DNA from: Squalus acanthias
Lineage: Eukaryota
NCBI GenBank assembly: GCA_030390025.1
Contig: CM059430.1
Span: 61,814,001 to 61,878,000, forward strand
Length of the DNA: 64,000 bases
Reading direction: 5' to 3'
Made by a program: the position numbers and the translations under genes. Positions 290 to 63,352 of this stretch are shown piece after piece. The first letter of the stretch is position 1. Each line of letters starts with the position of its first letter. The notes beneath the pieces are model-generated. The model ran no database searches. It saw only the letters and a program-made list of their open reading frames with translations, and was not told where the DNA came from.

Positions 290-586
290 TTCCCCCAACT
301 CCCCTGAAAATCGCTCCTGTTGAAGGGATTTCAGCGACTTCTCTAAAACTCGAGTGTAAAACGACTGCCTTTTACCCGGAGCATTTAGAAATCTCATGGC
401 GAAGAGATGGTGTCGAAAATCTGACCGGGATAGTAACTGTGAAAAACAAGAACGCGGAGGGACTGTTTGAGGTTTCCAGCTCGTTGGAAGAAGCACAGCC
501 TGCCCAGAGCGGAGTTGTTTATACATGTCTGGTATCTCATGTCTCTCTTCTGGTGCCCACCAATATCAGCTACACCTTTAATCAAG
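290..586 (+). CDS. Gene 1, Ig C1-set exon copy A (SIRP-like inhibitory receptor)
   Basis: ttaaag|...|gtaag, 297 nt, phase 1-1. Encodes (V)PPTPLKIAP...LECKTTAFYPEHLEISWRRDG...FEVSSSL...YTCLVSHVSL..., with the C1 hallmarks C-x3-FYP, W and YxCxVxH. Confidence 0.9.
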
Positions 587-1081
587 GTAAGATTGGAAAC
601 ATTTACAGCGGGGAGCGGGGATCTGATCCAACCTGTAATTACTTATTAAACATTTAGCTGGGTAGCTGTTGAACCCCGAGGATATAGGGTAACTGTGAAA
701 TGTATTTACTCTCAGTGTCACATCAATGGGAACGAAATAAAAATATTCCAGATGGTTTGTAAGTGAAGGAGAGAGAATATCTCGCTGAAGAGATCCGCAA
801 CGGGAGGTTGATGTGCGAACTGTTCAAAAGTTGAAAGATCATTCCTCGTCAAATTCTTGCCAAATAAAACAAAATTACGCACCAAATTGATCCATTCTAC
901 CAGATTTACTTTTACATCCTGTTTATTTAAAATGGAATATATGGAACTGTTATTGAGTAGATTGAGCCTATACCCTCGGGAGTTTAGAAGAATGAGACGT
1001 GATCTCATTGAAAGATAAAAGATTCTGATGGGGATTGACAAGATAGATGCTGAGAGGCTGTTTCCCCCAGCTGGAGTATGC

Positions 1082-1220
1082 AATTTAATGTAAAAAACTG
1101 GAAGTGGTTCATTTGATCTCCTGAATGCGAGTGTCGCCGACTCCGGAGTGCATTACTGTAAAGTAAAACATCATCTAAAAGCTAGTGGAGATAGAAGTGG
1201 CTCCCAGCTGATTGTGTACG
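1082..1220 (+). pseudogene. 3' half of a VJ-type Ig V exon (duplication remnant)
   Basis: Encodes KTGSGSFDLLNASVADSGVHYCKVKHHLKASGDRSGSQLIVY followed by a |gtaag donor. DSGxxYC and a J-like G strand are present. The 5' half is replaced by a CR1 fragment. Confidence 0.85.
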
Positions 1221-3580
1221 GTAAGTGTCATTGTGACGGGGAGTGGGAGATTCTCAGCAGTGTGCGATATATGTAAAACTCAATAGTGTGGGTAATTTGA
1301 ACGTTTATCACTTGACGAAAACCAGGTGATAGCAAAGTCGTTTTACACTTCTCCCGATTTGCTTTTCCATTGACCCGGTGTACAACCGCCCGCTGATTCG
1401 CTAGCGCCCGGTTTGCGCTACTGCCTCAGCTCAATTTCACCCCTTCATTGTCCGCATGACATTCCAAAGTGCTTTGCGTCCAATGAGTTCTTTTGAAAGT
1501 GCAGTTACAATTATTAAGGAGGCAAGATACTGAAATGGTATAAATGTTTAAGTCTTGGCTTGAAATTAATAAATGGGATAAGATGGCGAAATTCCTTCTC
1601 ACCAAAATAGCGGTGCCAAGGAGCCACAATGGGAACAATTTTAACACCTCCGAAGTCAGGTATTTTGTACTTCATTAAAGGCCAGCTCCGCCGCCCCAAC
1701 AAGGTGCCTTCATCACAAACTCAACAGAACAATGTCCTGCTACAATCGTGGTTATTGCACACGCCAGGGAACATTTCGGCTCCAATACTTGAAATTGCCA
1801 ATCTAATATTTTCTGTACAGTATTGCCCAAAATCTGGACTTCTCTCTTCGCAAAGCCGGTGGATAATGGGACAATTGGAGCTTCCAAGATTGCGATGGAT
1901 AGATTTTTGTTAGGTCGGGGTATCAAGGAATATGGAGTTAAATGTACAAATGGATTTGAGCTACAGACTCAAGGGGCTAAATGGCCTCCTCCTGTTCCTG
2001 TATCCGCAGTTTAGGCTGTGCACTTGCTTTCATTGAGAACTTTTTTGAGACTGCCAAACTAATTTCACAAAGGAATCTTATAGCCCATTGAAAGGGAAGT
2101 GTTGGTCTTAACCCTCAATGCTGGATTCCATCCCAAGTCCTAGACCTTGCAGGAGAGTGTAGAAACCCAATGCTCCTGTTTGAACATCTGTCTTACGGCA
2201 ATTGGAATTTCTTTCATTCACTCACAACCTGTAAAGTACGGGCAGATTATCGCCGAAATTGCTATAAACGCCTGGGCTCCCGTATTTGCAATTCATGATT
2301 TCCATTTCCATTCTACCAATCACCGTCTGAAGTTACGGCAGCAGATTAAGTGAACACTTTCGTCCTCCTCCTCCACGGAAATTCTACCGCATTATATATT
2401 ATGCCTAAACAGATCAGTGTTAAAGAATGGAGGAATTCTGAGCATTGGTTGAGCAATCAACACGGTGCTGCTGCGAATAATGGTAAAATAACTTTCCAAG
2501 TTAATAATACCCCTGATTTAAATGTTTGCTGTTACTACAAAATCGGAAAAGTAAACATTTAAAGCAAAGATGTTAAGGAGATTGTTTGTAATAAACTGAC
2601 AAAACAATGCAAACCTAATAAGGGACTGTACTTCCAGCTAAACAGTGACTGTAGCTCTAGCGGAAAAAGTTTCACATTAGTAAAAGACTATTGTAGGACT
2701 GATATAAGCAGAATCTTCTTCAGGCAACCCGTGTTCAACAGTCGAATAGGCTTGGGGAAGGACAAAAACCCTGGAATTATATAAGAGATGCACTCTGAGT
2801 TAGGAGTTCCTATTCGGATTCCCTCCTCTGTATGGATGTTGTGATCTACACAGAGATACATCATTACCAAGATAACCCTTTCATGACGTGAAAAATATTC
2901 CAGCCCTTGGTTCGCACTCTGGGGAAAGTACATTTAGTGAAAGCTGCAGGATCTGAAATCTCCACCACAGACACTCAAATGCTGGTATAGCAACTGTAAT
3001 GCACGAATATTAATCTATAGATATAACAGCATCCTGTCTGCAATCTGTATAGACATCAAAGATATTTCGATATATTGGTAAGAATTCTTCTTCTCAATAT
3101 TCACCGTTTATATAAAATATGTTTGCAATATATGAAATATCTAAAAAGTGAAGAATTTTTAAATAAACACACAAAATGTTTAATACTCCAAAGATTATCA
3201 ATGAATAACGAGAAGCGATTCCACTGTTCGTGCAGACTGGGTTGCGCTCTCTCCGATATATTCGGACAGGAACCTCACTTGGAGTCACTGCTGCAAACCA
3301 CAATCCCTCGCCAGGATCTGATACTCCATTCAGAACAGTGACGCGTGCCTCCCTGCAAGTTAGCAGCCCTGTGTATTCACCCTCTTTGCGTACGGTTTCC
3401 AATACATTCCGTCATTTTGATGTGCGCCGTAAAACAATTTATAAAATAAATGCAAACTCGAAGTTTAAAAAAACGACAGCGCGGATAACTCTTGTGACAT
3501 TAGGTCTATAACAGCATGACGAGAGTAGACAAATGAGAATGTGCTCCTTTGAATTAAAAAAAACTTTTTTTCTGTTAAAG

Positions 3581-3877
3581 TTCCCCCAACTCCCCTGAAA
3601 ATCGCTCCTGTTGAAGGGATTTCAGCGACTTCCCTAAAACTCGAATGTAAAACGACTGCCTTTTACCCGGAGCATTTAGAAATCTCCTGGCGAAGAGATG
3701 GTGTCGAAAATCTGACCGGAATAGCAACTGTGAAAAAGAAGAACGCGGAGGGATTGTTTGAGGTTTCCAGCTCGTTGGAAGAAGCACAGCCTGCCCAGAG
3801 CGGAGTTGTTTATACATGTCTGGTATCTCATGTCTCTCTTCTGGTGCCCGCCAATGTCAGCTACACCTTTAATCGAG
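3581..3877 (+). CDS. Gene 1, Ig C1-set exon copy B
   Basis: Same splice sites and 297 nt length as copy A, open frame, 10 substitutions versus copy A by manual count. Confidence 0.9.
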
Positions 3878-4239
3878 GTAAGATTGGAAACATTTACAGC
3901 GGGGAGCGGGGATCTGATCCAACCTGTAATTACTTATTAAAAATTTAGCTGGGTAGCTGTTCAACCCCGAGGATATACGGTAAATGTGAAATGTATTTAC
4001 TCTCGGTGTCACATCAATGGGAACGAAATAAAAATATTCCAGATGGTTTGTAAGTGAAGGAGGGAGAATATCTCGCTGAAGAGATCGGAAACGGGAGGTT
4101 GATGTGCGAAATGCTCAAAAGTTGAAAGATCATTCCTCGTCAAATTCTTGCCAAATAAAATAAAATTACCCACCAAATTGATCCATTCTACAAGATTTAC
4201 TTTTACATCCTGTTTATTTAAAATGGAATATATGGAACT

Positions 4240-4665
4240 GTTACTGAGTAGATTGAGCCTATACTGTCTGGTGTTTTCATGAATGAGAGATGATCTCATT
4301 GAAAGGGGGTATTGACAAAATAGATGCTGAGAGGCTGTTTCCCTTGGCTGGAGAGGCTAGAATTAGGGGGCATAGTCCCAGGATAAGCGTCGGCCATTTA
4401 TGACTGAGATGAAGAGGAATTTCTTCACTCTGACGGTTGTGAATCTTTGGAATTCTCTACCCCAGAGGGCTGTGGCTGGGTCGTTGAATATATTCAAGGC
4501 TGAGGTAGATAGATTTTTGGACTCTAAGGGAATCAAGGGATGTGGGGATAGGGCGGGAAAGTGGACTTGAGGTCGAAGATCAGCCATGATGTTATTGAAT
4601 GGTGGAGCAGGCTCGAGGGTTCGTATGGCCTACACCTGCTCCTAATTCTTATGTTCTTCTTATGT
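4240..4665 (+). mobile_element. CR1 LINE 3' end (partial duplicate at 948-1078)
   Basis: ORF2 C-terminus-like sequence, then cagccatgat...gaatggtggagcaggctcga and a ttcttatg tail. Confidence 0.85.
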
Positions 4666-5341
4666 TTTCTGTTCTCTGCGCACCATTCCTTCAGCTGTCT
4701 AGACTCTAAACTTTGGAATTCCCGCCCAAAACCTCACTTCTATATCCCACTCCTTCTTTAAGAGGTTCCTTAGTCCCTACCTCCACCTGTCCTAATCGTG
4801 GCTTGGTGTCAAATATTGTTTCATACCGCTGCTGTGAAGTGCCTTAGGATGTTTTACTACGTTAAAAGCGCTATATAAATGCAAGTCGTTCTTGTTACCT
4901 ACCAAAAGTTGCAGAAGGTGTCCTCTGGTAAGGCTGGTGAGGGGTGGCTGCACTGGAGAACGGGCGACTTTGCCACTTTTTGCAGCCGGTACCCATCAGT
5001 CCGGTGTAGCATGGCTAAGTAAAACATGAAACTCTCTTTACTCTTAATTAACAACCGTCTTGTGCAGAGAGAGGCTTCATGGGCCTTCATGTAATGGGAT
5101 TTGTTTTATCCATAACTTGCATCACTGACTTGCAGTTGATGTCGTTTGGTACACGTTATAATCATTGTACAGCTACTGCCCATAGAAATAAAGGGGTCGA
5201 GCCCCTCTGACAGTCAGTGGACGCCATCATCTCGAGAGACACCTTTGGAACTCGCCCTCCCGTACCGGACCCATGATTCCCTGTGTGTATATCTCTTTAT
5301 GTTCTACAGTTTCTTATTTCAATTATCTGTTGATCCTGTAG

Positions 5342-5446
5342 GTACTGATCACAAATTTGCACTGATATTTGGATGTGCAGGGGGCGCATTGGCAATTTTA
5401 CTGTTGATAATAATTTTGCTGCAACTCAGATTGAAGGCTTCAGACG
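5342..5446 (+). CDS. Gene 1 transmembrane exon
   Basis: cctgtag|...|gtaag, 105 nt, phase 1-1. Encodes (G)TDHKFALIFGCAGGALAILLLIIILLQLRLKASD; no charged residue in the TM core. Confidence 0.88.
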
Positions 5447-5789
5447 GTAAGAACATTTCTTATTTCGCCGAATGCTTTTATTTTCTGCGGTCCAGTTGTA
5501 TTGTTACAAAACCGAAAGGGCAGGTGATTAGGGATTGATTGTAGAGGAATAAAGTGCCCTTAACTGCCTGCATCTTTAAAGAATGAAGTTACTACCACAA
5601 GAGCGTTATATGGTTGGCACCAGATGAATATGACAATGTAAACCGGATCTTGAAATGTCAATATTTTACCTTCCCATTCGAACTATTCACTCAACTTATA
5701 CACTTTCATTTTGCAACACCCGGAATTCTTAATGTTCTACAATATTTCAGTATAAGTGCGGGTCCAGATCTTGAAGCGTAAACACTTTG

Positions 5790-5966
5790 AGGTAGATGTT
5801 GACTTTTTGCGATAGTGTAAAACGGATGATAGCGAATTGGCAGACTGTTTTACATCTCTCCCGATTTCTATTTCCCTTGTGTGTGTGTCACTGGGAGAGA
5901 TGTAAAATAGGCTGTCGTCTCACTATCACCCGTTTTACACTATCGCACAAAGTCAAAGTCTACTCC
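5790..5966. mobile_element. Short foldback (MITE-like) element; relatives at ~1290-1443, 7830-7976 and 59280-59437
   Basis: ttgactttttgcgatagtgtaaaacgg...ccgttttacactatcgcacaaagtcaa forms a near-perfect inverted repeat. Confidence 0.7.
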
Positions 5967-6170
5967 ATTGTGTGCAGCGTCACTACGGGGTATGAGAAGG
6001 TCATGAACAGTATACCACACTAAGGACTGGCACTTCTAAACACCTTCAAGCAGATCAGTCCCTTCAGATCTCCTTACTTTACAAAGTAAATATGACCAAC
6101 ATCAAATCATGTTGGTATTGCTGGCACACAGATTAAGTTATTCAAGGTGGATTTTTTTCCTTTCCTTTAG

Positions 6171-6214
6171 GCATTAAGAGAAATTCTGTGGAAGCGGGTC
6201 AGAGTGAAGAGCCG
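6171..6214 (+). CDS. Gene 1 cytoplasmic exon 1
   Basis: Strong polypyrimidine acceptor tttcctttag, 44 nt, phase 1-0. Encodes (G)IKRNSVEAGQSEEP, donor gtaggg. Confidence 0.78.
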
Positions 6215-6317
6215 GTAGGGTGACAATGTTCTTTATGTTCCAAAAAAGAAGAAGGGTAAGGGGGGAATAGCAACACAATATATACATTCAGCCGAGAAGG
6301 TACTTCTTATATTTCAT

Positions 6318-6722
6318 AGAATCATAAACTCTTACAGCACAGAAGGAAGCCACCATGCCTGTTCCTGCTCTTTGAAAGAGTTATCCAATTCGTCCCACCA
6401 CCCACCCCCCCCCCGCTCTTTACCCAGAGTCCTGCAATTGTTTTCGTCCCAATTCCCATTTTGTAAGGTCCCACTGAATCTGCTTCCACCATCCTTCCAG
6501 GCAGTGCGCTCCAGATCATAACAGCTGGCTGCATAAAATATTCTCCTCATCTTCCTCTGGTTCTTTTGCCAATTATCTTAAATCTGTGCCCATTGGATAC
6601 CAAGCCACCCATCAGTGGAAACAGTTTCTCCTTATTTACTTTATCAAAAACCTCTCCGAATTTTGAACACCTCTATTAAATCTCCCCTTAACCTTCTCTG
6701 CTCTAAAGAGAACAATCCCAGT
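6318..6722 (-). mobile_element. CR1 LINE 3' fragment
   Basis: Reverse strand matches the CR1 ORF2 end and 3' UTR. Confidence 0.75.
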
Positions 6723-7129
6723 TGTAATATCCTCCAATAGGCTGGGCTGGCCGAGGAATAGGAATGTGGCGGACGCCCCAGCAGGAGTGAAAACCTTCAG
6801 GAGAGTAGAGAGAGAGAGTTAATTGGGGAAGAAAGGGGGAAATGAGTAATGTGTAGTATTCATAGGATAGTTATTAGCTGTGCTCCGAATCATCCTGATT
6901 TTAAATGTATGTAAATAATTGTGCGCTATGGGTTACATATTTAGAACATTACTCCACACCTTATGGGTGAGATATTGGATAACATCATTGAGTGGGACAG
7001 AATACAATCGTGCCCTAATCTATCGGTTACTGTGTGCATTTTTAGACTTTCAGACTCAGTTCCAATTGATAGTAGCTGGCTGCTGTATCAGACACTCCGC
7101 TATCAGTATTTCATGTCTTATTTTTACAG

Positions 7130-7240
7130 GTTAGACAAGGACCAAGTGAAGAGATTGCCGCCTACGCTAATCTAAACTTGAGACACGACAGAGGACCTCC
7201 CAAACGGAGACAGGAGAAAGAGAACACCGTCTATTCCCAG
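7130..7240 (+). CDS. Gene 1 cytoplasmic exon 2 (Tyr motifs)
   Basis: ttttacag|VRQGPSEEIAAYANLNLRHDRGPPKRRQEKENTVYSQ|gtacat, 111 nt, phase 0-0. Confidence 0.82.
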
Positions 7241-7244
7241 GTAC

Positions 7245-7755
7245 ATAGAGTTACATCGGATATACGGCACAGAAACAGGCCATTCGGCCCAACCAGTCCA
7301 TACCGGCGTTTATGCTCCATAGAGCCACCTCCCGTCTTTCCTCATCTAAATCTATCAGCATAACCCTCTATGCCTTTTTCTCTCATATGCTTGTCTAGCC
7401 TCCCCTTAAATGCATCTATACTATTTGCTTCAACCACTCCCTGTGGGAGCGAGTTCCACATTCTCACCACTCTTTGGGTAAAGAAGTTTCTTCTGAATTC
7501 CCTATTGGATTTCTTGGTGACTATCTTATATTGATGGCCTCTAGTTTTGCTCTTCTCCACAAGTGGAAACATTCTCTCTGTATCCACTCTATCAAAACTT
7601 TTCATAATTTTAAAGACGTTTATTAGGTCATCCCTCAGCCTTCCTTTTTCAAGAGAAAAGAGACCCAGCCTGTTCATCCTTTCCTGATATGTATACCCTC
7701 GCATTTCTGGTCTCATCCTTGTAAAACGTCTCTGCACCCTCTCCAGTGCCTCCAG
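7245..7755 (-). mobile_element. CR1 LINE 3' fragment starting a few nt after a splice donor
   Basis: ORF reads ALERVQRRFTRM...LGLFSLE...RRNFFTQRVVRMWNSLP. Confidence 0.9.
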
Positions 7756-8074
7756 GTAGAGCGGTGGGATTGGCGCCAATAATATCCAAACCATTTCCAT
7801 ACAAAATCAACACTCTATACAGAAACGTGGGGGTAATTTTGACTTTGTGCGACAGTGTAAAACGATGGTAGCGAAATCGCATCTCTCCCACTGACTTCGA
7901 TGGAAATACAATCGGGAGTGATGTAAAACGGGCTGCGGACCAGTTTCACACTATCGCACAGTCAAAATTATCCGCGTTACTTTTTCGGGTCTGGCTGTGA
8001 TACTGATTGCTCTGAACGACAAATTGCAAAATAAGAAACTCACCTGATCAGACTGGCAAATATTTCTGTTACAG

Positions 8075-8179
8075 ACGAAGCAAGGAACCAGCGACAGACT
8101 GACTTCCGCCACTCTCGTAACCAACACCACGAAAAACGCGAAACCCAGACAGAAAGAGGAGAGCACGGTGTATGCCCAG
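8075..8179 (+). CDS. Gene 1 cytoplasmic exon 3
   Basis: gttacag|TKQGTSDRLTSATLVTNTTKNAKPRQKEESTVYAQ|gtacag, 105 nt, phase 0-0, homologous to the neighbouring exons. Confidence 0.82.
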
Positions 8180-8544
8180 GTACAGCTCAGGTCATTCATT
8201 GAAACACGATCAATGTTCTGCGGTACGGCACTGAGCCACAGGAAATAGAAAGATCCCAGGTTTAATCTACCAAGTGTGCTGTGTCGGCTGATCTCAGCCA
8301 AGGTTCATCATAATTGACCTCCGTGTCCCAGGGATCGGCAGTGGTGGGGGTGGTGCGGGGGGAGGCGGCTGAAAAGTGCAGATGCGTGGGCAGGTTCAAC
8401 CTTGGAGCCTCCGCCATTGGATCAGCAGGTCACACAGGCTGTCGAGGCTCAGACACCTTAAAACGGTCCATTGCGATATGAGATATACTTAACAGACGGG
8501 TGTGGCAATGGACTGACGGTTGATATTAAATGTTACTTTCACAG

Positions 8545-8685
8545 ACTAAACAAAGAGGCGGAGACAACAAGCTGACTTACGCCGCTCTGCAGCTTGCTGA
8601 TTTCAAGAAAACATCAAAATCGAAACACCAAGACAAGCGGGCTGTGTACGCAGAAGTAAACGTGAGAAACAAAGAGAGAAGCTGA
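8545..8685 (+). CDS. Gene 1 last coding exon, ITIM plus ITSM-like motif
   Basis: tttcacag|TKQRGGDNKLTYAALQLADFKKTSKSKHQDKRAVYAEVNVRNKERS*. LTYAAL is a canonical ITIM (compare LTYADL in human SIRP-alpha). Confidence 0.87.
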   Translation, partial: TKQRGGDNKLTYAALQLADFKKTSKSKHQDKRAVYAEVNVRNKERS

Positions 8686-9189
8686 GAATCGGAATACAGT
8701 CCGAAGATGTGGGCTATTAATGACTTCAGGCCCAGGGTATTCGATTATACAGCATAAAATGTGTGTCTATCACTGGTTTCATTTATTGCAGGCAGAAGAA
8801 GGAGTGACGACCTGGAACATCACACATTTTGTGTGTGTGTGGAGGGGGAGGGGGGATGGTTGGGGAGGCAGGTGAAGCGGTAATTTTCACCTTCAGTGTT
8901 GAGGCGGTAAACTGGCGGAATTCGTCGCCGGCCCATTATACAACCAGCCCGCTATCGCGCGCTTTCCATGGCTACGGCAGAGTCCGCAACGCCAGTTTTA
9001 CGCGGGCTGCAAGCTGAAAATCTAACTCGGCCCATGTGTTCTGGATTTCAAGTGTGCACAATGTACTGTGCGCGCGATATTATCAACCGGTTGTCATCGA
9101 AATTTTGCAATGTCAGCTTGCGATGGCTCCTTCAAACTTTGCTTGCATGATTGAGATCGCAGGGATTCATAAGGAGTCCCATGCAGTCT

Positions 9190-9195
9190 AATAAA
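9190..9195 (+). promoter_or_regulatory. Candidate polyadenylation signal of gene 1
   Basis: AATAAA about 500 nt after the stop, followed by T-rich sequence. Confidence 0.45.
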
Positions 9196-22096: not shown

Positions 22097-24779
22097 AAAA
22101 AAGGGGGACCAAGAAATTGATAAAGAAAGTGAAAATGGAATATGAGCACAAACTAGCGAAAAATATAAAAACGGATTGTAAAAGCTTCTATAAGTATGTG
22201 AAAAGGAAAAGACTGGCGAAGGTAAATGTAGGTCCTTTACAGTCAGAGACGGGAGAATTTATAATGGGGAATGAGGAAATGGCGAAGAAATTAAATAAAT
22301 ACATTGGGCCAGATATTCGGCTCTCCGGATTCCTGCGGGTGCAAGCATCGCGTGCGTACTTACCTACCGCACCTGCCATTGTGCTTCAGGCCCACGAGGA
22401 ATTCGGCTCCTGGGCTTCCTGCAGCTGCTGGCGCGCAGTGCTCGTGTATCCCAGAGGTGCAGTTAGTTCGAAGCGTCCCCTGGGATCTTGTGGGCCATGG
22501 AGAGCCAATCGTAGCAGGGAATTTTCATTCATAGATTTGACAGCAATACTTGTCAAATCTATGAATAGAGATCAGACCCAAAACCACACAAAATGTCAAA
22601 TAAATTTAAAAAAAAATCACATTTTGAAAATAACTATAAATTACATAAATTAACTAATTAAACAAAAATATAAATTTTTGAAAAAATTAATTATACTTTT
22701 AACGGTGCTAAAAATAAACTTACCTTTCTTTAAAGTATGTAAAAAAGATAAACCTATTGAAAAAATGTTTAAATTGTACTTAATTAACCACTTACCTTGT
22801 TAAAAACAGGCCTTGTGCCTCCTTTTTAAATGTGCAGCTTCATGGAGAAACCTGAAAAAAAAAACGCGGTTCGTTGCGTGCGCGCTGCCTCTCCTGCGCA
22901 CGCGTTCGATCTCTGAACCCCTTCCTTCAGGGGAACGGAAGTTCCGGTTTCCAGCGCATGCGCAGTGCATGTGTGAAACCGGCACATCAGGTGGTCTTAC
23001 GGGTGAGTACACAATGCGTACTCACCCGTGGAGAGCCGAATTTTTGGCCCTTTGTTTCTGTCTTCACGGAAGAAGACACAAAACACCTCCCATAATACGA
23101 GAAAAGCAAGGGTGTGACGAGTATGAGGAACTTAAAGAAATTATTATTAGTAAAAATACAGTACTAGCAAAATTAATGGGACTAAAAGTCGATAAATTCC
23201 AAGTACCAGATGGCCTACATTCTAGGGTTTTGAAAGAGGTGTCCATTGGAATAGTGGACGCATTGGTTGTCATCTTCCAAAATTCTATAGATTTTGGAAC
23301 GGTTCCTGCAGATTGGAGGATAGCAAATGTAACCCCACTATTTAAGAAAGGAGGGAGGGAGAAAACGGTGAACTACAGATCTGTTACCCTCACATCAGTA
23401 GTTGGGAAATGCTGGAGTCTATGAAAAAGGATGCAATAACTGGGCACTTAAAAAGTAATAGTAAGATTGGGCAAAGTCAATATGGATTTATGAAAGGGAA
23501 ATCCTGTTTGACAAACCTATTGGTGTTCTTTGAGGATGTAACTAGTGGAGTAGACAAAGGGGAACCGGTAGATGTGGTGTATCTGGATTTTGAGAACGCA
23601 TTCGATAAGGTCCCACACAAGAGGTAGGTGAACTAAATTAGGGCACATGTGATTGGGGGTAATATACTGGCATGGATTGAGAATTGGTTAACAGACAGAA
23701 AACAAAGAGTAGGGAAAAACGGGTATTTTTCAGTATGGCAGGCTGTGACTAGTGGGGTACTGCAAGGATCAGTACTTGGGCCCCAGCTATTCGCAATCTA
23801 TATCAATGATTTGGATGAGGGGACTAAATGTAACATTTCCAAATTTGCTGATAATACAAAGCTAGGTGGCAGTGTCTGTTGCGAAGAGGATGTGAAGAGG
23901 CTTCAAGTGGATCTCGACAGGCTCAGTGATTGGGCGAGAACATGGCAGATTGAATATAATGTGGATAAATGTGAAGTTATTCACTTTGGTAGAAAAAACA
24001 GAAAGGCAGATTGTTTCCTAAATGGTGAAAGATTGGGGAATGCAGATGCTCAAAGGGACCTGAGCGTCCTTGTACATGGGTAACTGAAATTGAATGTGCA
24101 GGTGCAGCAAGCCATTAGGAAGGCAAATGGTATGCTGGCTTTCATTACAAGAGGATTTGAGTACAGGAGTAAAGAAGTCATACTCCAATTATATAGGGCC
24201 TTGGTGAGGCCACACCTGAAGTACTGTGTAAAATTTTGGTCTCCTTACCGAAGGAAGGATATATTTGCCACAGAGGGATTTCACGAAGGCTCATGAGATT
24301 GATTCCTGTGATGGTGGGACTGTCGTATGAGAAGAGATTGAGTAAACTAGGCCTGTTCTATCTTGAATTCAGAAGAATCAGAGGTAATCTCATTGAAGCA
24401 TACAAAATTATTACAGGGCTTGATAGGATGGATGCTGGGGAATCCTTCCCTTAGCTGGGGAGTCTATAACCAGGGCCCACAGCCTCAAGATAAAGGGTAG
24501 GCCATTCAAGACTGAGATGAGAAGAAATTTCTTCACGCAGAAGGTGGTGAATCTTTGGAATTCTCTACCCCAGAGGACTGTGGAGGCTCAGTCATTGGGT
24601 ATATTCAAAACAGAAGTCGATAGATTTCCGACTAGTAAGGGCATCAAAGGATGTCGCAATAGGTCCGGTGAATAGAGTTGAGGCAGAAGATCAGCCATGA
24701 TCTCATTGAATGGCAGAACAGGCTCGAAGGGCCGTATGGCCTACTCCTGCTCCTATTTCTTATGTTCTTATGTTCTTAT
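22097..24779 (+). mobile_element. CR1 LINE nested in the opposite-strand CR1
   Basis: Reads YLDFENAFDKVPH, GVLQGSVLGP and FADN; ttcttatg tail. Confidence 0.9.
22306..23050 (+). mobile_element. PIF/Harbinger-type MITE (~745 bp)
   Basis: TIRs gggccagatattcggctctcc and ggagagccgaatttttggccc, 3-bp flanks att/ttt, AT-rich core; cleanly interrupts a CR1. Confidence 0.85.
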
Positions 24780-48812: not shown

Positions 48813-48819
48813 GAAAAAA

Positions 48820-50669: not shown

Positions 50670-50774
50670 TTATTCTGTGCTCTTTACCTTCCTTCTAGAT
50701 TTTCCATTTTTCTTGGAACTAAGCAGAATAACGGTTGCGTACGTCAGCGGGTTATCAACTGCTTCTTGCAAGGT
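50670..50774 (-). CDS. Gene 2 last cytoplasmic exon with ITIM
   Basis: ctttaatag|TLQEAVDNPLTYATVILLSSKKNGKSRRKVKSTE*, homologous to the gene 1 tail exons. AATAAA on the minus strand at 50201-50206. Confidence 0.75.
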   Translation of the reverse strand, partial: TLQEAVDNPLTYATVILLSSKKNGKSRRKVKSTE

Positions 50775-52852: not shown

Positions 52853-52875
52853 AGTGTCAGCTGTGTCTCAGTGGT

Positions 52876-52908
<33 letters not shown>

Positions 52909-53318: not shown

Positions 53319-53617
53319 CTTTCTCAGACTGCTATCATTCAGTCTCAGCTTGATGCCACGCAAGGTCTGACTGCTGTCATCGTGGATGGGCCTACCGCCG
53401 GCGACCGGAGCTTCCGCAGTGTCTCAGCAGGCCAGCAATCTGCTCCAAAAGATTGCTGAGGATGCTGAGGTGTTGCCCAAGAGGAGTGGCAGTAGTTCAG
53501 TGGAGCCGGAACCTTCTGTCCTCTCTCAGGATGACAGCATTCCTGCTCCCACCACTGCCACTCGACCATTGCACTTGTCGCTGCCTGTCATCCCACCAGC
53601 CGAGACTGCTGCCGCCT

Positions 53618-54273
53618 GTGCATGAGCTGAAAACCGGCACTTGCGATCTGTCAAGAATTCTCTTGACAGATCATCCGCCTGCCTGGGAAAAGTGCTTCTG
53701 CGGGTGGAGTGTTGCGCTTTTTGCACAACGTCTGCCAAATGAAATACCACATAATTCTTCTGCATGGTAAAGCATGCATAAGGTCTGGTTTTACCAGCTT
53801 AAGAGTGTTGAAAAATAGAAAAATTAAATTTGATTACTCATTTATAAATTAAAAATACTCTTCACAAACGTAAGTTTATTTTTAAACCCGTAAAAACATT
53901 TTTTTTATTAAAAAAAAAATTAAATGGAATTTTAATTAATTTTAATTATGTAGTTATTTTTAAATGTATTTAATATTTTAGTGAGTTTTTAAATGTCATA
54001 CCCATTCGTAATTTTGACAGTTCTATCCCTACAGACCTATCAAAAGCATGAAGGGGGTTTCCCTTCTTTGATTGGTTCGCCTGGCCCACCTGATCCGAGG
54101 GGCTGTTGCAAACCAGATGCACCCCTGGGATACGTGGGCCTCTGTGCATTTCCAACTGGAGAGGCCCAGGATCGGAAGTCTCGGGATCTATGGAACCAGC
54201 AGGTAGGTTCATAGATTTTATTCCGATCGGAGGCATCCGCCCGCAGGAAGCCTCTGATCGGAAATTCAGGGGC
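53618..54273 (-). mobile_element. MITE, one end truncated, nested in Harbinger 2
   Basis: Homologous to 45306-46011. Confidence 0.78.
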
Positions 54274-56991
54274 AATATTTTGTTGTAAATATGTGTTCAC
54301 TGATTATTGATAAATTTATTAATTCAGTTTGGATTCTTTTGTGGTGTCTCTCATTTTAGGTTTGCGCTGTGATATGGCCTGCAACAGGGATGGAATGTTG
54401 GGGATGTGCTGAGCAACGAGAATCTGGTATTAAATTAATTTACTTTCTGATGAGGTGGTCACGGACCACCCTTCCAGAAGGGCGATTGAGTGGCTGCCTC
54501 CTCCGTTGCTCCTGTTCCTCCTCCTCCTCGGCTTCCTCTTCCTCCTCATCCTAGTCTTCCTCCTCCTCTCCATCTTCCTCCTCCTGAGGTGGTCTCACAA
54601 TCCCTGGTGGCAGGTCTGAGTCCTCATGATGGCCAAGTTGTGGATCATGCAGCAGGCCACCACAAAATGGAACACCCACTCAGCCGAGTACTGGAGGGCT
54701 CCTCCCAAGCAGTCAAGGCTGCAGAACTGCTCCTTGAGCCCCCCGATGGTCTGCTCGATTATGTTCCTGGTGGCAGCATGGCTCTGATTATGTGATTGCT
54801 GAGCAGAAATGTTGGGGTTGTGGAGCGGGATTATGGGCCCAGTGGAGAGAGGATAGCCCTTGTCTCCGTCCAGCCAGCCATGAGCTTGATGTGGTGGCTG
54901 GAAGAATGTTGTCGCAGTATGAAGGCATTGTGGCTGCTGCCAGGATAGCAGACATTGACATTGAGGATTCACTGTCTGTGGTCATGCAACAACTGCACAT
55001 TAAGTGAGTGGTAGCCTTTGCGGTTTCAGAAGATCTCAGGATTGTTATGCGGTGTCTGCACAGCCACGTGGTGCAGTCAATGGCGCCCTGCACAATGGGG
55101 AATCCCACTATCCTGATGAAACCACATGCACGCTCGTCCTGCTTCTCTCTGGTGATGGGGAAGGAAATGTAGTCCCTTCTCCTACTGTAGAGAGCCCCTG
55201 TGATATCCCGGATGCAGTGATGGATGGCAATATGCGAGATGTTAGTTTTGTCTCCTGTTGCAGACTGGAAGGATCCACAGGTGAAGAAATTGAGGGTGAC
55301 GGTGACCTTGATGGTCATTGAGAGAGCCGTGGTCACCATGATCTGAGGCTGGAGCTCAGGGGTGGCAGAGTTCTGTGACCTCCTCCTTGGGGAAGCGAAG
55401 CCTTCCAATGCACTGCTCTTTACTTAATTGGAGCTAGGAGGAGTTCTCTTGGAATACCTTCAGAGGGATAGGCCTCCTGTTTTGAGCCCTGATGCCCCTC
55501 CTCTTCCCTCTGGCCACATGTTCCAGTCTTTCTTGCTGCCTCCGCTCCCTCCACTTTAGATCCTGGAGGGCAAGGTCGACTGCGAGTAGAGCCCCATTAA
55601 TGTAACCAAGTGTAGCAGTTATATTTTTTAAGATTCAATGAGCTACTTTTTAGTTGCCACAACACTCTTTATACGAAATAACCTTGAAATCACACTAACC
55701 TACAGCTGTGACTCATTACTGATAACTGCTTTAAATAACGTCCCTGGAGCCAGATTCCTGGTGCTTCGCACCAGCTCTCCCTGTCGCTGTATCCTCCAGG
55801 TGCTAAGGTAAGTGGCGACAATCAATTTTGCAGATTGGGAAGTCATTGAGCGTTGCACACTCACTGGCATCACAATCCATCTAGCGTTGATGTTCCCGGC
55901 AATAACTTTTAGCTGCGGCACTGCGGGGGAGGGGGGTAGTTTTGTGTGTGTTGCTGGATTTGCCTCGCCCCAGTAATAATGGTCTAGCATCTCATTAGCG
56001 CCATCTGCTGCCGCTAACAGGAGGCGCCCTAAATCTCTGAATTGCTACATCCGCCTCAAAGACGCAGCCTCAACGCACTTTGAGTACCCAAAGCCTGGGG
56101 CATAAATTTAAAACTCTCATTTACATGATGCATAACCAAAACACAGACAAATTAATTTGGTGCTGCGCTCTTTGTGGCCACTCACTGTTGTGCCATTGGC
56201 TCAAGCAAATCTTCGTCACCAACCTGTTAAAATTTCCTTGCTGGGCTCCAAGCTGGGTTTCCAAATGTAGTGGGCAACTTGCCCTGGAGGGGTGGGCAGA
56301 AAATGGTTGCTGGTGCAGAACTGTGGCTAATTGAAACATTACACCAATAATTTCAGAAGAAAGGATATCGATGTTTGATAATAAAACACCCAAAGATGGG
56401 AATTTTGTTTAAGGTTCATCTTCCAGATTTTTGCCGTGGTGAAATGACCGGTCCTGGGGCGCACCGGTCAGGAAAATAGGGACAATGACCAATTACACAG
56501 GGCCTGATCCCCATTATTTGCGCTGGGATCTAGGGACAGCAGTAGCAGCAGCCCGACCTATTCATGGAGATTAGGTGGAAGAGGGAGCTCCAGGTCTCCG
56601 TCCCATTTTCAAAACGAAGAATTTTCAATATCTAGATGCAGGGATGTCACATGTAGATGGTGTTAAATTTGCGCCGGGTCTGCCTGTTCTCCTCCGACTA
56701 GATGACTGGAAAAGGCGTAGCATCAAAACAAACAGAACACTAAATGTGAAGTTGTATCCTTTTTCCAAGTTACTAAACCATTCTCTGGGCTTGGGAGCCT
56801 GCTGCCTGCTGCTTTCAAACCCCTACGGCCCGGGTCCTCAATCAAATTTCCTCCCTTTCTAACGGGGCACTAGACCCTGCCACAGAGTTGGCATACACTG
56901 GGAGCGTCCCCTGACCATGGTATTGTAACTGACAAAAAAGTACGCTACTCCTGGACCTGAGCAGACTGAGTGCACTTAGTGCCTAGACAAT

Positions 56992-57754
56992 GGCCAGAAA
57001 TTGGAGTTCGATGGTTGCCGCGGGGGTAAGGATCCCCCGCGATATCGCACTCCGCGCCCACCTTTATGGTTTTGGCCCACACGTACTTCAGTTCCTGGGC
57101 CTCTCCCTGGTGCCGGCGTACAGTGTGTGCGTGTCCCAGAGGCGCAGTTAGTGCGATGTGAGCTCTGGGATCACATGGGCCAGTTAGAGCCAATGGCAGC
57201 ACACCATCTTTCATTCAAAGTTTTGACAGCAAGAGCTGTCAAAACTATGAATACAACAAGCCCCCAAAAGAACAGCTAAACCACAATTAAATTAAAAAAA
57301 AGCCATCACATTAATAAAATAACTATAGTTAAATAAATTAACCACTTTAAACAAAAATTTTAATTTTTGAAAAAATTTAAATTCTTTTTAAAAGTTATAA
57401 AAATAAACTTATGTTTCTTTAAAGTCTCTAAAAAAGATAAACCTGTTGAAAAAAAATTAAAATAATACTTCATTAATTACTTACCTTGTTAAAAGGGGGT
57501 CTTACGCCTGCTTTCTTTATGTGTAAAATCTTCAACACTTACCTGCGGGTTCAAACCTGAAAAAAAAACTAAGTGTGCTGCGTGCGCACAACCTGTAGCG
57601 CGGATGTGGTTCACTTAGGAACCGCCCCCTTTGCCATACACGAAGTGCCGGTTTCCTGCTCATGCGCAGTGCATGCAGCAAACCGGCACTTCGGGACCTA
57701 ATACGCGAGAGTACACAGTGCGTACTCTCCCGCATCAGGTCTAATTTTCGGGCC
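56992..57754 (+). mobile_element. Harbinger-type MITE
   Basis: aat|ggccagaaatt...aattttcgggcc|aat; collinear with 22306-23050. Confidence 0.88.
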
Positions 57755-57961
57755 AATGGATTTCGGTAGAAATTCTGCGCCAACTTTCACTTGGGAGTAC
57801 TACATGTTGACAGGTTTTTATGTCCCAGTCTGATGTAAGTCAACTGGAAAAGTGCACAAACGAGTTATCCTCGTCTGAAATAGATTTGAAATGTGCTCAG
57901 CTCAACACAAAATTATCACATTACACTTAAAATATCAATAGGATGAATGTTATAAAATTAC

Positions 57962-58002
57962 AGACTTGTCACAATTGATTGCTTCATCTTTTCTCTCTCT
58001 GC
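57962..58002 (-). CDS. Gene 2 cytoplasmic exon 1
   Basis: tattttactag|(C)RERKDEAINCDKS|gtaatt, 41 nt, phase 1-0, positional homolog of 6171-6214. Confidence 0.6.
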
Positions 58003-58257
58003 CTAGTAAAATACAAAATTCAAAGCTTCATTGTGAATGATGCACGATATGATTCAGCAAGTATGGCGGATGCCAATTTGCAGTGAGGGCAAAGTCGAAA
58101 AAATCATAACATTCCGCAACCTGGATTTTCGCCGTGGGATGCTAGTTGACCAATACTAATGCGAAATTGCATTCTACGAAAAATAAACAGTCTGACACTT
58201 CTGCCAAAAAAAGGGAGAAGAATTTCTGATATGTTCAACCCCTTGTATATTTAAAAA

Positions 58258-58732
58258 TGAGAAGTCGCACAACACCAGGTTATAGTCCAACAGATTTATT
58301 TAAAATTACAAGCTTTCGGAGCTATCGCTCCTTCTTCAGGTAGGGTAGCTGTGAGAGAATCTCCCAGAATTCACAATATAAACACAGAAAAAATGTATTC
58401 AAATCTTTCCCTACATCAAAGACACACTAAGAGCACAGCCAAGACAATGAGATGTGTCCCAGGGGGGCCAACGTGTCAAAACACCTGCTGGCTGCATATC
58501 CTCTGCAGTTGAGTTTGGTTCTTGTGTTAGTTTTTTTTTAAAAACCTGGAAAGACCGGCCATGATGTCAAGTCACGTTCTGTATCGTGACATGAACCCGA
58601 TATCGCGATTGAGGCCATCCTCATGAGTGCGGAACTTGGCTATCAGTTTCTGCTCTATGATTTTGCGCTGTCGTGTATCCCGAAGGCCGCCTTGGAGAAC
58701 GCTTACCCGCAGATCCGAGGCTGAATGCCCCT
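58258..58732 (-). mobile_element. Penelope-like element 3' end (GIY-YIG C-terminus plus terminal region with hammerhead-like core)
   Basis: Reads GHSASDLRVSVLQGGLRDTRQRKIIEQKLIAKFRTHEDGLNRDIGF...*; CTGAAGA-a-ggagc-gata-gctcc-GAAA at ~58313-58339. Confidence 0.75.
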
Positions 58733-59012
58733 AAGCATGTGGAGATCAGAGAGAAGTTTTTCGGATCGGGGTGGGGTGATAGCGCAGCGGGACCACAATC
58801 CATCTTCATGTTCATACCATTCTAAGATAAATGCTGCATTTCAGGACCACAGACCGATTTCAAAATTCAACAACCAACCTGAGCTCTATTCACGCGTCAA
58901 CAAAGCTTCTGACCAGTAAATTATAGCGTGGAACAATCCTCTCTCCATGCTGACCAGCTTTTTCTATTCGTTTTAATTTGTATTTAAATTAAACAGTCTG
59001 GTGATAACTTAC

Positions 59013-59132
59013 ATTTACAGTTACTGAATCTGAACGACATTCCAATGATAATCACCAGCACCAGAAACGTCAATGCAAAGCCTGCACATCCAAAGATCCG
59101 TACATAAGGCGAGGGCGAAGCATTGTCACTAC
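59013..59132 (-). CDS. Gene 2 transmembrane exon
   Basis: tcgcag|(G)SDNASPSPYVRIFGCAGFALTFLVLVIIIGMSFRFSNCK|gtaag, 120 nt. Shares IFGCAG with the gene 1 TM. Confidence 0.85.
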
Positions 59133-60512
59133 CTGCGAGATAAAAATAACATACACATATGGAGCTGTGCATTGTTGAGGATGCCGTCGGCAGTCAGAGC
59201 CCTAAATGGAACCTGATATTTGAACAATTGTTTACAGCAGTTGAGCATGGGTAATCAAATTGTTAACTGATGGAAGTTGTTTTATCGCTATTTAAAACTG
59301 AACGAAACAGATGGCAGACATTATCGCCCGGCGGAAAACGGGCTAATAGAACAGAAAATCGCGCGAGGAGTGAAAAACCGGCTGCTGATTCGCTATCGGC
59401 CATTTTGCGCTATCGCTGAAGACCAATTTCATTCCCACATGATTCTGGAAGGCTGACCGATCTTTAGTTTCTGTATCTGTTTTTCACTCTGCGGGACAAG
59501 AGTATTTTCTGCTGATAAGAATAAAACTTAATTTTTAGTTTTAAGTAGTTAATTCATTCAATTAACAATTGCCCTCGTCACTATGTGAGATTGTGTCGTA
59601 ACTTCTTTTACGAAGGCTTCCTCTGTTAGGTACGTCTCAGCATGTTGCATTTCTCTGCAGAATTATGTTTGTCAAATTTCTCCCGCCGCTCGTTTGTCTC
59701 ATCAACGCTCCATTCTTTCCAAACCAAATGATTGCCACTATTTCAAGCTAAGAATAAATATGCAGCTAGAATTCGGAACACCACATAACTTTGGTTTGTA
59801 TCTGTTTCCCATTCCCTAGCAATATATTTGCCATAGAGCGATCAGCGGAATTCTTCCTCATTTGACACTGCAGAGTAAAGAATTTCAACAATCACGCCAC
59901 CGACTTTTTCTAGGACAAAATAAGCTACTGAGCGTTTCGACCATGTGGCGCTAGATCAGCGATTATTTGATTTGAGATGGGCAACTGACTGATAGTGAGG
60001 GCAGTTTGAACGAAGAGTCAATATTAATGAATAAACATGGCCTGATGTAAAAAGAATAATTTTGTACCGAACTGTTTTCCGGGTTGCAATATTTACTGAA
60101 TTGAAGGGGTGTACGTGCATTGGGAGAACTTTCAACTTCAGTAGGTGTATAAAAACAAATGGAAAGGAAAATCTGGCGATGTGTATAACGGGGCCGATCC
60201 TTTTCCGCCAATTTTACGCCCCACCGAAGTTGAAATTTCCGCCCACTTGCAACCATACCGGAGGAGGTTGTTGGTCAAAAACTGGAAATCTAAGTGCTCT
60301 GGAAATCAACATTAAATTGTAATATTTTTAATATTGATCGGATTTTACAAAAATATCATGTAGTGGATAATTTCCACTGTTCCCTATTTGCAGCTAAATT
60401 TCTTACACATTTCCCTTTCAATAATCAAAAAAGAAAATCTTCCCCTGTTTGGCAATGAAGCACTCACACATTACTGGCAGACGTTTGTTTTTTAAGCAAA
60501 GTGACATCTTAC

Positions 60513-60823
60513 CTGAGTTAGAATTTCGAACCAAGTAAATTGCCATGGCTGGAAACTGGAAGGGTCACGTGAGAAACCAGACAGACGTAAACAGGCCCTC
60601 CTGGACAGGCTGTGTCTCTTCAAAATAGCTGGAAGCTTCATACATCCCGGCTCTGCTGAGCTGTTTAGTAGTATGTATTCCGGTTTCAATGCGTCGATTA
60701 TTTTTGTTCCAAGTGACTGCCAGTCCCTCTGGGTAAAATGAAGCCATTTCACACACGAGAGCCAAAGAACCGAATACATTACTTTCAGATGGGTTGGAAA
60801 CAATCTCAGGGGAATTGGAGGAG
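60513..60823 (-). pseudogene. Gene 2 Ig C1 exon with three frameshifts
   Basis: caccag|PPIPL / IVSNPSE...LVCEMASFYPEGLAVTW...YEASSYFEETQPVQ / VYVCLVSHVTL / QFPAMAIYLVRNSNS|gtaag. Length 311 nt is not a multiple of 3. Confidence 0.85.
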
Positions 60824-62162
60824 CTGGTGACAGGTCGAAGAAGAAAGTTAAATATCTGGTCTATTCTGGAATTTCTGAAGTCGAATAGATAGGACTTCAG
60901 ATCGGCTACAACAGTATCAGAGAACTATAAATCTGTTTGTTTATGGTATAGCGAAAACATTAAATTTTAATTATTGTAGATTATAGAATCATAGAAGGGT
61001 ACAGCACAGAAGGAGGCTACTCAGCCCATCGTACTTGAGCCGTCTCTTTGGAAGTGCTGTCCAATTAGTCCCAAACCCTGCTCTTTCCGCAAAATCCTGC
61101 AAATGTTCTCCTTCAAGCATTTAACCAATTCCCTTTTGAACGTTGCTATTGAACCTATTTCGTCCACCCTTTCAGGCAGTGCATTCCAGATCATAACAAC
61201 TCGCTTCGTATTTTTCCCCTCATGTTGCGTCTGGTTCTTTTGCCCATTATGTTCACAATTTATATAGCTCCCTCTATAAAACCTCGAAACCTAACTTTGC
61301 AGTGTTACCTCGTTATTGACAAAAATTTGAACGCGTTGGTGAAGCATTTCCCTGGTCTCTGTAGTGAATAGAAGATGCGTTTGTGAAGGCCTTCTATGCC
61401 TATTATTCCCGACCCAACCAAACCTTCAGAATGCGCTCATACATTGTCGCTACCTACAGTGAGCAGAGGAAGCGCAACCCCACACCCATCGCCCGTCTTG
61501 TTATGGAGGTGACCCCGAGAAACATAGAAACCTAGAAGATAGGAGCAGGAGTAGGCCATTCGGCCCCTCGAGCCCTGCTCCGCCATTTAATGAGATCATG
61601 GCTCGTCATCCAAATTCAGTACCCTGTCCCTGCTTTCTCCCCATATCCCTTGATCCCTTAGCCTTAAGAAATATATCTAACTCCTTCTTGATATATTTAA
61701 TGAATTGGCCTCAACTGCCTTCTGTGGTAGAGAAATAGAAATAGAATATAAGCAGCGGCGGCATAGCTTCTTAGACGGATTTCTCACAATTAGCCCCGAC
61801 CACGAAATTAATTCTATTTCCAGCCACGACGTTTTTTATTCGTATTACTTGTATGTTTTACAATAAACGTACAACATCACAATCAGGGATATTAACTAAA
61901 GGCGAACCTTCCTCTTCACGGGTTACTTCGGCGTGAGAGAAACATTTGTACCTGGAAAGTAAGAACTGTGGCGAATGGAGTTTGCACAACTCAGGGACAC
62001 ATTCACGACATTCTTTATCGATGACATATTCGTTTTTGAAGGGATTTGAGGAGATAAAAAATCTTTGCTTCGTCGACCAGAGGCTGAGAGAAGCTATTGA
62101 CTGAAGAACAGGAAATACAGCCAGGCTTCCGATACACTGATCTCTCAGTCCTAGAGAACACA

Positions 62163-62600
62163 GTGTCAGCCGTGGCTCAGTGGTAGCACTTTTGCCTCCT
62201 AGTAAGAACTTCCTGAGTTCTAAGCTCTACTCCAGAGATTTCAGGGCATAATCAAGGCTGACCCTTCAGTGCATTGCGGAGGAAGTTGCGCACTGTCGAA
62301 GGGATGTTTGGATAAGATATTAAACCTCGGCCCCTCTGCCCTCTCAGGCGAACATAAAATATCCCACGGCACTATTCGAAGAAGTGCATTGAAATTGTCC
62401 CGGTGTCCTAGCCAATATTTATCCCTCAAGCACCATCATTAATGATCTAGTCAATATCCCATTGTCGGACATTGCTGTGTGCACATTGGCTGCCACGTTT
62501 CCCTACATTAAAACAGTGACTACATTTCAAAAGCATTCCAACTACATTGTAAAACGCTTTGGGACACCAAATGCGCTACATAAGTACAAGTTATTTCTTA
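62163..62600 (+). mobile_element. Deu-domain SINE
   Basis: gtgtcagccgtggctcagtggtagcac head; homologous to 52853-53318. Confidence 0.78.
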
Positions 62601-63102
62601 TTTATCGCAGCAAGAGCGGGGACACAACATTTAAAAATAATCACGTGGATTAACTTCTGTGTGCATGTTATAATTGAAATTAGACTTTATACTCGATAAC
62701 AACACGCTTAGTGTGATAGTTTAGATGGTCATCTAACTGCAGTTTTAAACTGTTCAGGATATATTCAAATAAGGCTAATCAAAATGATATTTATACTGAA
62801 AACCTTTCAAGTTATCACAATTTGTATTCGCACCTGTATGGCATGACAACGCTTCATGCGCAAGCTTAGAAGCATGAAATGGCATAACTAATTATTAATA
62901 AAACGATCAAGATGGTTTAAAAAACCAGCACACAGATCTACAGGTGTTGTATTTTATAACTTGAATCTCTGTAATTGAAGCATTTGATTTCTAATGTAAT
63001 TTTTAAAGCAACACGAGAGAGAATGGGGAATGCCATACTTGATTATTTATTTTGAATAACTGTGAGACTATACCGCCGATAAGCTCTTTACAATGTTCTT
63101 AC

Positions 63103-63352
63103 CACTGACGACAAGGTTAGTTCCGCTTCCATTTGCTTTCCTGTTTCCCCGATGTGTCACTCCACAGTGATAAACTCCAGTGTCCTGGAAACTGATATTC
63201 CGAAGCTGGAAGGAGGCTCTTGCTTTCTCAGTAAGAAATCGTTTCCTGGTGTCTGAGCCTGGTTTTATCAATTCATTCTCGCCAAGTTTCCACCAATAAA
63301 TATTCACAACTGAATCGTCTTGCAAAATAGGAAATGTGCAATAGAAGACATC
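63103..63352 (-). pseudogene. Gene 2 VJ-type Ig V exon (3' part), split by a MITE
   Basis: Encodes DVFYCTFPILQDDSVVNIYWWKLGENE...RKRF...ASFQLRNISFQDTGVYHCGVTHRGNRKANGSGTNLVVS, donor gtaag. Both Cys, the Trp and a J-like GSGTNLVV are present. The N-terminal side abuts a MITE TIR. Confidence 0.88.

Follow-up and report, generated by a model that had tools for sequence, protein, structure and literature searches.

The 64,000-nucleotide stretch of the Squalus acanthias genome analysed here (the window; positions 61,814,001 to 61,878,000 of contig CM059430.1, called C6 below) holds two convergent genes, A and B. They belong to a large and apparently undescribed family of chondrichthyan surface receptors of the germline-joined VJ-C1 type. 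In our reading, to which we give a probability of about 0.8, the family works as a paired-receptor system, in which gene A is likely inhibitory and gene B a pseudogene. Both genes are ordinary members, and the interest resides in the family. By which receptors shark natural killer (NK)-like and myeloid cells distinguish self from non-self is, to our knowledge, an open question, and a family of more than 100 genes with inhibitory and activating twins in sharks, rays and chimaera is a candidate for that role. The paired design, if true, would date to the base of jawed vertebrates. The debate on the origin of antigen receptors gains a large non-rearranging VJ-C1 family outside the MHC (major histocompatibility complex) regions, and the family offers a germline repertoire of compact domains shaped like VNARs. 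Our literature searches found no description of it, although subscription journals and supplements could contain one.

A large family with probable inhibitory and activating members

Searches of the genome with the C1 and V exons of gene A give 150 and 119 matches. With split hits merged and other contigs dropped, C6 carries at least 129 C1 and at least 111 V loci (lower bounds, which count broken copies), in blocks at 57.5, 61.2-62.8, 67.4-68.2 and 72.5-76.9 Mb, and for 111 of the 129 C1 loci a V lies upstream on the same strand at a distance of no more than 15 kb. A preliminary description of the window had proposed a gene cluster evolving by birth and death; such a history is supported and the cluster is real, but it is located outside the window, which holds only two of the genes. 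In a set of 100 loci from the cluster and its surroundings, open exons number 70 for V and 80 for C1, and 66 genes have both. The J-like terminus GxG[ST]xLxV is present in 57 of the 70 intact V exons. Median pairwise identity is 41% for V and 48% for C1. Family hidden Markov models (HMMs) give 82-129 bits for the C1 exons and the V exon of gene B, and 31-50 bits for the transmembrane (TM) exons, far above chance. The proposed domain assignment is borne out by Pfam, as C1-set for the C1 (E 7e-10) and as V-set for the V of gene B (E 1.4e-6).

Protein searches give 7, 24 and 45 matches. The named ones, including every named full-length protein, all come from sharks, rays or the chimaera Callorhinchus (one further fragment is unnamed), in agreement with the cartilaginous-fish origin that had been guessed for this DNA. 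The homologues lie mostly on one long contig per species. Their automatic names are of SIRP type ("PTPNS1-like", often), B7H6 type ("NCR3 ligand 1-like"), "tapasin-related", immunoglobulin (Ig) light chain (IgL)-like and T-cell receptor (TCR)-beta-like, and we found no one-to-one orthologue with an established name, as the proposal of a novel family had required. In a phylogenetic tree, the family C1 domains form one clade (ultrafast bootstrap, UFboot, 100) apart from the comparison domains of this genome (Ig, UrIg-like, tapasin-like and MHC-I-like), which were labelled by eye. The V plus C1 shape and the names "NCR3 ligand 1-like" and "tapasin-related" would also suit B7-type ligands (B7H6/NCR3LG1- or tapasin-related) in place of receptors. 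That identity is very improbable: the same family is also named SIRP, IgL and TCR-beta, so that the names are best-hit noise, its C1 clade is separate from tapasin-like C1, and the J-like strand together with the inhibitory tails and Arg-bearing twins described next suits receptors.

The preliminary description took the family to be inhibitory; that it is purely so is not supported. Some database homologues combine an Arg-bearing TM with a short tail, and a genome search with such a TM finds it behind the closest paralogues of gene A. We sampled most of the genes at 61-68 Mb and about half of the 72-77 Mb block. Of the 87 sampled loci with a C1, 14 have no TM within the stretch and were left out; in the other 73, with the TM assigned by proximity and its class read by eye, 29 have an Arg TM and 44 a neutral one. 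The Arg TMs are of types RLVLG, RYAVD, RCAWV, RCTGG and RSAGG, and the Arg, which replaces the Gly of the GCAGG type, sits at the outer end of the TM. The TMs of L031, L039, L040, L045, L046, L048 and L049 combine an Arg with an Asp (RYAVD/RYALD), and such a pair of charges is unusual. An exon with an ITIM (immunoreceptor tyrosine-based inhibitory motif) is found in 23 of the 44 neutral loci and in 3 of the 26 Arg loci whose downstream sequence extends over 6 kb or more (p 7.5e-4 by Fisher's test, which is optimistic because paralogues are not independent).

The two classes share their ectodomains. In a set of 59 genes whose V and C1 are both open, 24 are Arg genes, and for 18 of these a neutral-TM relative exists with 86-100% V identity. 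The TM classes do not cluster on ectodomain trees (22 changes on V, versus 18.9 when shuffled). Three pairs are 94-98% identical in DNA across V or V-C1, with a drop ahead of the TM, the pattern expected of crossover or conversion. The close relatives of gene A at 61.53, 61.64 and 61.73 Mb (C1 identity 90-95%) have IARLVLG TMs, and two of them end in a short, Tyr-free last exon. Two zeta/FcR-gamma-family genes are present in the genome. The rule that paired receptors set ITIM members against members with a TM Arg or Lys is stated in PMC3533184; what we find in this family are ITIM tails (at motif level), members with charged TM and short tail, and similar ectodomains, all within one cluster.

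A paired system of this kind would operate as follows. The compact V domain would recognise a ligand, most likely a self protein, that another cell displays. Once phosphorylated, the tail tyrosines of neutral-TM members would recruit SHP-1 or SHP-2, a step we infer from the tail motifs, and NK-like or myeloid cells would be damped. Members with a TM Arg and a short tail would pair with an FcR-gamma or CD3-zeta adaptor and activate, and a pathogen that exploits the inhibitory twin would meet them as decoys. The twin ectodomains are likely kept alike by unequal crossover or conversion, which would also have produced the second C1 of gene A.

Several observations weigh against this reading. No ITIM exon is seen within the 10 kb fetched at 21 of the 44 neutral loci, and three Arg loci (L068, L069 and L082) keep ITIM exons, that of L068 intact-looking and the other two degraded; these are possibly snapshots of a switch from inhibitory to activating, or dual receptors. 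TM exons are assigned by proximity, and for 8 of the 73 the score falls short of the HMM threshold. The pairwise dN/dS, 0.53 for V (24 close pairs) and 0.48 for C1 (26), shows no domain-wide sign of positive selection and speaks against a strong arms race. For gene A, a leader exon was not found by tblastn, HMM or candidate check, the sole candidate being a repeat, and gene A itself may thus be silent. As to expression, in one sequencing run, guessed to be RNA and from another organism, depth outside repeats occurs only in the bins that hold exons, a weak indication. This run has contigs on the second C1 exon and on the last exon of gene A; base 63 of the latter contig falls at the exon edge, which fits splicing but does not show it. 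The Heterodontus RefSeq models have the same exon chain with alternative forms, and are predictions.

Genes A and B

The anatomy of the two genes (Table 1) agrees in most respects with what had been read from the window at the outset. They are convergent (tail-to-tail) and share exon phases (V, C1 and TM in phase 1, the last exon in phase 0), all three C1 exons begin with PPxPL, both TM exons have IFGCAG, and each last exon has an ITIM of LTYAxL/V type. Parts of that account have to be modified. Of the two ITIM receptor genes, gene A is open and gene B is a pseudogene. The J-like V end stands for gene B, whereas the V of gene A within the window is a mere remnant, the intact V with its GDGSGSQLTVY terminus being upstream of the window.

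Table 1. Exons, duplicated segments and inserted element of genes A and B (window positions unless noted).
Feature	Position	Strand	Remarks
Gene A intact V exon	G000:C6:61811592-61811897 (L001:7592-7897)		2.1-2.4 kb upstream of window
Gene A 3.3-kb tandem duplication, first copy	from 2242 bases upstream of window to 1076
Gene A first C1 exon (C1a)	290..586	+	begins PPxPL at 290; AG/GT ends, phase 1-1, open frame; 125 bits on family C1 HMM
Gene A truncated V remnant	1079..1220	+	strands E-G only, terminates GDRSGSQLIVY, donor intact; V-set E 0.04
Gene A 3.3-kb tandem duplication, second copy	1080..4353	+	V 3' part, intron, C1; 92.2% by blastn (3322 bases)
Gene A second C1 exon (C1b)	3581..3877	+	begins PPxPL at 3581; protein 95% identical to C1a
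Gene A TM exon	5342..5446	+	IFGCAGG type, hydrophobic stretch without charged residue; matches Heterodontus P0004/P0007
Gene A short juxtamembrane exon	6171..6214	+	44 bp, phase 1 to 0
Gene A tail repeat exon 1	7130..7240	+	AAYANL and TVYSQ
Gene A tail repeat exon 2	8075..8179	+	first Tyr lost, TVYAQ
Gene A last coding exon	8545..8685	+	LTYAAL (ITIM, 8572) and AVYAEV (ITIM-like), followed by the stop
Gene B last coding exon	50670..50774	-	one ITIM (LTYATV, 50747)
Gene B TM exon	59013..59132	-	IFGCAG, open; same subfamily as stingray P0022
Gene B C1 exon	60513..60823	-	begins PPxPL at 60823; three 1-bp indels, frameshifted; aligned to intact paralogue L034
Gene B V exon, 3' part	63103..63349	-	J-like terminus NGSGTNLVVS; 5' part past insertion, outside window
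Non-coding element in gene B V exon	63350..64000		about 745 bp, ending at 64095 past window

The eight exons of the gene A model from V to stop, joined, give 468 codons with a single terminal stop and five tail tyrosines. All eight are open with GT-AG ends, and their chain equals that of the Heterodontus RefSeq model P0007. For the last exon there are 43 homologous exon matches, each of which lies on C6 or on one of two unplaced contigs where further family exons are present. The second C1 exon is due to the 3.3-kb tandem duplication; an assembly artefact as the source of the doubling is ruled out by the 92% identity between the copies. The V remnant that the duplication placed between the C1 exons amounts to only the 3' third of a V exon (38 bits on the family HMM) and is likely skipped during splicing. 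Judging from its frame and motifs, gene A is likely an inhibitory member of the family with a recently doubled C1. P0008, a Chiloscyllium plagiosum model, is also V-C1-C1, with two near-identical C1 domains. Recent tandem duplication seems to have produced the three-domain shape that resembles SIRP on two occasions, once in gene A and once in P0008.

Gene B is by its sequence a pseudogene, its V exon split by a transposon and its C1 exon carrying indels (-1/-1/+1 relative to intact L034). The C1 indels are all at short runs and could be read errors; the insertion is not explained in this way. The inserted element has terminal inverted repeats of about 15 bp and an imperfect 3-bp target duplication, and it lies before the B-strand Cys of the V. 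Its family has three copies in the window (22435-23059, 57121-57758 and 63350-64000), with an AT-rich middle and no coding frame seen. A RAG-type event was considered for this insertion and rejected, since the position is near the V start and the ends do not resemble recombination signal sequences (RSSs). In the last exon of gene B, a stop occupies the place of the second Tyr of other members, as it does in the paralogue L034. The interval between the genes consists mostly of repeats, including LINE reverse-transcriptase fragments, and 65% of positions 9-50 kb matches repeats from unrelated loci.

Both window genes could be non-functional, with only other cluster members at work, and this we consider somewhat unlikely. 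Gene B is broken, and in gene A a V remnant with a live donor sits between the C1 exons of a gene whose leader was not found. The eight exons of gene A are nevertheless open with GT-AG ends, and the leader was likewise not found for its close paralogues, which points to a failure of the search.

The V domain and its structural relatives

The non-rearranging VJ-C1 architecture that had been proposed is supported: rearranging Ig and TCR genes have split V and J segments with RSSs, whereas here V is a single exon that includes the G strand and no RSS lies beside the V exons (two RSS-like matches in 1.06 Mb, neither adjoining a V). The cysteines of strands B and F are 54-59 residues apart in all 64 V exons measured. 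The V exons of L081-L084, a subfamily, have the F-strand Cys replaced (YYSV/YYAV/YYSA) and the J-like glycines partly lost, and thus miss the canonical disulfide. An AlphaFold2 model of the V (predicted local distance difference test score, pLDDT, 94) has strands A, A', B, C, D, E and F, followed by a G strand that is bulged; C and D are separated by only 12 residues, and there is no C' or C'' strand of 3 or more residues. Foldseek returns VNARs in 10 of its 11 top rows. In a wide fold search, a skate VNAR (Z 14.7, root mean square deviation 2.0 over 96 residues), NCAM2 (14.5) and CD79b (14.1) tie, and NKp30 follows at 12.6; SIRP is not among the rows shown for either search, which does not exclude it. 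Going by the model, V is a compact domain that resembles VNAR, probably by convergence. VNARs rearrange, their identity to the family V is only 20-28%, and the likeness may reflect shortness alone, given the tie with NCAM2 and CD79b.

With its single-exon VJ followed by C1, the family could be a direct relic of the gene that was split by the RAG transposon to create Ig and TCR, an ancestry to which the preliminary description had linked it. The J-like termini, the VNAR and TCR/IgL V domains as best structural matches, and a grouping of the C1 clade with Ig/UrIg C domains (UFboot 91), to the exclusion of the tapasin and MHC-I types and of two further types of C1, all point in this direction; the tree had 15 outgroup domains, without TCR, SIRP or PRARP. 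We regard direct descent as a long shot. The architecture is alike, but the J-like strand is without the Phe/Trp of a true J, and the V is shortened and probably derived. The cluster also lies outside MHC and antigen-receptor regions (0 of 28 proteasome-subunit matches fall on C6), and the published candidates, UrIg and UrIg2, sit in the MHC and in the Ig/TCR complex (PMC12227049).

Like this family, UrIg and UrIg2 are elasmobranch genes with a non-rearranging VJ and C1 domains, and UrIg/UrIg2 is the top PDB sequence match for the family C1. They differ in that their C domains number 3-11, there is one gene or a few, the linkage is to the MHC or to Ig/TCR, and expression is in liver/gill (PMC12227049), whereas the family has 1-2 C1 domains, a separate C1 clade and no proteasome-subunit match on C6. 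The UrIg2-like genes of this genome are on a contig separate from the cluster. On that contig (G000:C3243; L161-L163), the UrIg2-like multi-C1 genes have near-identical repeated C domains, and C1 matches at five places suggest several copies. PRARP and Xenopus VJ-C1 are reportedly also non-rearranging VJ(-C1) membrane proteins (Fu 2019 and Ohta 2019 are said to describe them), encoded by few genes and linked to MHC paralogous regions. NKp30 (NCR3) likewise has a VJ domain with a GNGT-type G strand. Its TM bears an Arg and it signals with zeta/FcR-gamma; unlike the family, it is without C1 and without an ITIM twin, and is MHC-linked.

SIRP, other paired receptors and the chromosomal neighbourhood

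In teleosts, the NITRs make up a paired family that is large and clustered and has ITIMs as well as J-like V domains. They are among the joined-VJ families of PMC11599192. The second domain of NITRs is of I type, whereas that of the shark family is C1-set; a goby protein of NITR shape scores 28.6 bits on the family V profile and has no C1. The best per-domain V scores outside chondrichthyans (46-55 bits, among 150 proteins listed, 10 of them looked up by name, so that single-domain relatives could be missing) belong to the turtle proteins XP_037733860.1, XP_053904980.1 and XP_074865127.1, which hhalign joins to the family V at 97.7% (E 1.5e-12). Like the family, they have a GNGT-type strand and a short Arg-TM form beside forms with Tyr tails, and their Cys spacing is 60-63; unlike it, they lack a C1 and have 3-6 V domains, each with a J. 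When the Arg-form TMs of turtle and shark were compared, their similarity beat composition shuffles in three of four comparisons (2, 8, 10 and 101 of 1000 reached the score), a weak result for hydrophobic text, and a V tree with turtle, goby and ray outgroups is poorly resolved. We take the turtle multi-V receptors as possible relatives, a lead only.

SIRP-alpha/beta/gamma resemble the family in design, sharing germline VJ plus C1, tandem two-Tyr tail units with ITIMs, and inhibitory/activating pairs. The family might be the cartilaginous-fish SIRP branch, either as relocated orthologues or as a whole-genome-duplication sister (human 16q versus chromosome 20, which are paralogous), and we entertain this tentatively. 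SIRP-alpha is among the top Atlas clusters (0.95-0.96), V-C1-C1 was reached by gene A and the bamboo-shark P0008, and in a search of PDB chains with the whole-protein profile SIRP-alpha takes fourth place (E 3e-25). That last score adds up two C1 domains, and the second C1 is a recent duplication at 92% DNA identity; the PDB profile searches are dominated by multi-domain chains, and a search of 1.8 billion proteins by giant multi-Ig proteins. The family differs from SIRP in usually having one C1, a compact V with the short Cys spacing given above, and more than 100 genes. The TM residue of SIRP-beta is a Lys and it uses DAP12, whereas the putative activators of the family have an Arg, near the outer TM end, in place of the Lys.

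The preliminary description suggested comparing the neighbourhood with SIRP or MHC-paralogous regions; it points to neither. COG8 lies at 1.3 Mb on C6. In forty 10-kb stretches sampled around the blocks, we find G-alpha-o exons at 58.6 Mb (44 residues with no difference from G(o)), Vac14 at 66.4 Mb (a weak Pfam match, E 0.004), a serine carboxypeptidase at 70.0 Mb, a domain of HYDIN/CFA65 type at 70.8 Mb, and an EF-hand exon at 72.0 Mb which we take to be NECAB-like. COG8, GNAO1, VAC14, HYDIN and NECAB2 are human 16q genes, so that the neighbours are of 16q type. In tetrapods, the neighbour of SIRP is NSFL1C (human 20p13). The two SEP-domain genes of this genome are on C11 and C8, while the cluster is on C6; the one on C11, beside a FAM110 gene, is presumably NSFL1C. 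No Ig exon was detected in 190 kb at the C11 gene with family HMMs, or with Pfam on 110 of 183 non-repeat open reading frames, which leaves room for a displaced SIRP orthologue. An opioid-peptide marker search gave one doubtful match. Reasoning by analogy, the family would work like the SIRP, LILR or NITR paired receptors, yet it has neither the synteny nor the activating residue of SIRP. A wider proposal, which we find possible but doubtful, is that it forms the main paired-receptor complex of cartilaginous-fish NK or myeloid cells (a functional counterpart of KIR/LILR/NITR), a 16q whole-genome-duplication sister of SIRP with a compact VNAR-like V that does not rearrange, surviving in tetrapods as the turtle multi-V receptors.

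Some minor observations concern these regions and the family at large. The serine carboxypeptidase exons (L129, C6:70.0 Mb) are presumably cathepsin-A-like, possibly a duplicate lost in mammals. Near the NSFL1C-type gene there is an open 1008-codon pol frame of a long terminal repeat retroelement (L151:6976-9999). Further C1-set exons of unclear family occur at L169 (C1615) and L171 (C22:12067480), and a PDB search with L171 was uninformative. The Heterodontus model P0009 joins a V like that of the outlier gene at 57.5 Mb (L173:6051-6359) to C1, TM and tail of gene A type, by either exon shuffling or a mis-joined model. A lone family V exon, containing a stop, is found on another chromosome (G000:C2:108619218; L172:5167-5469).

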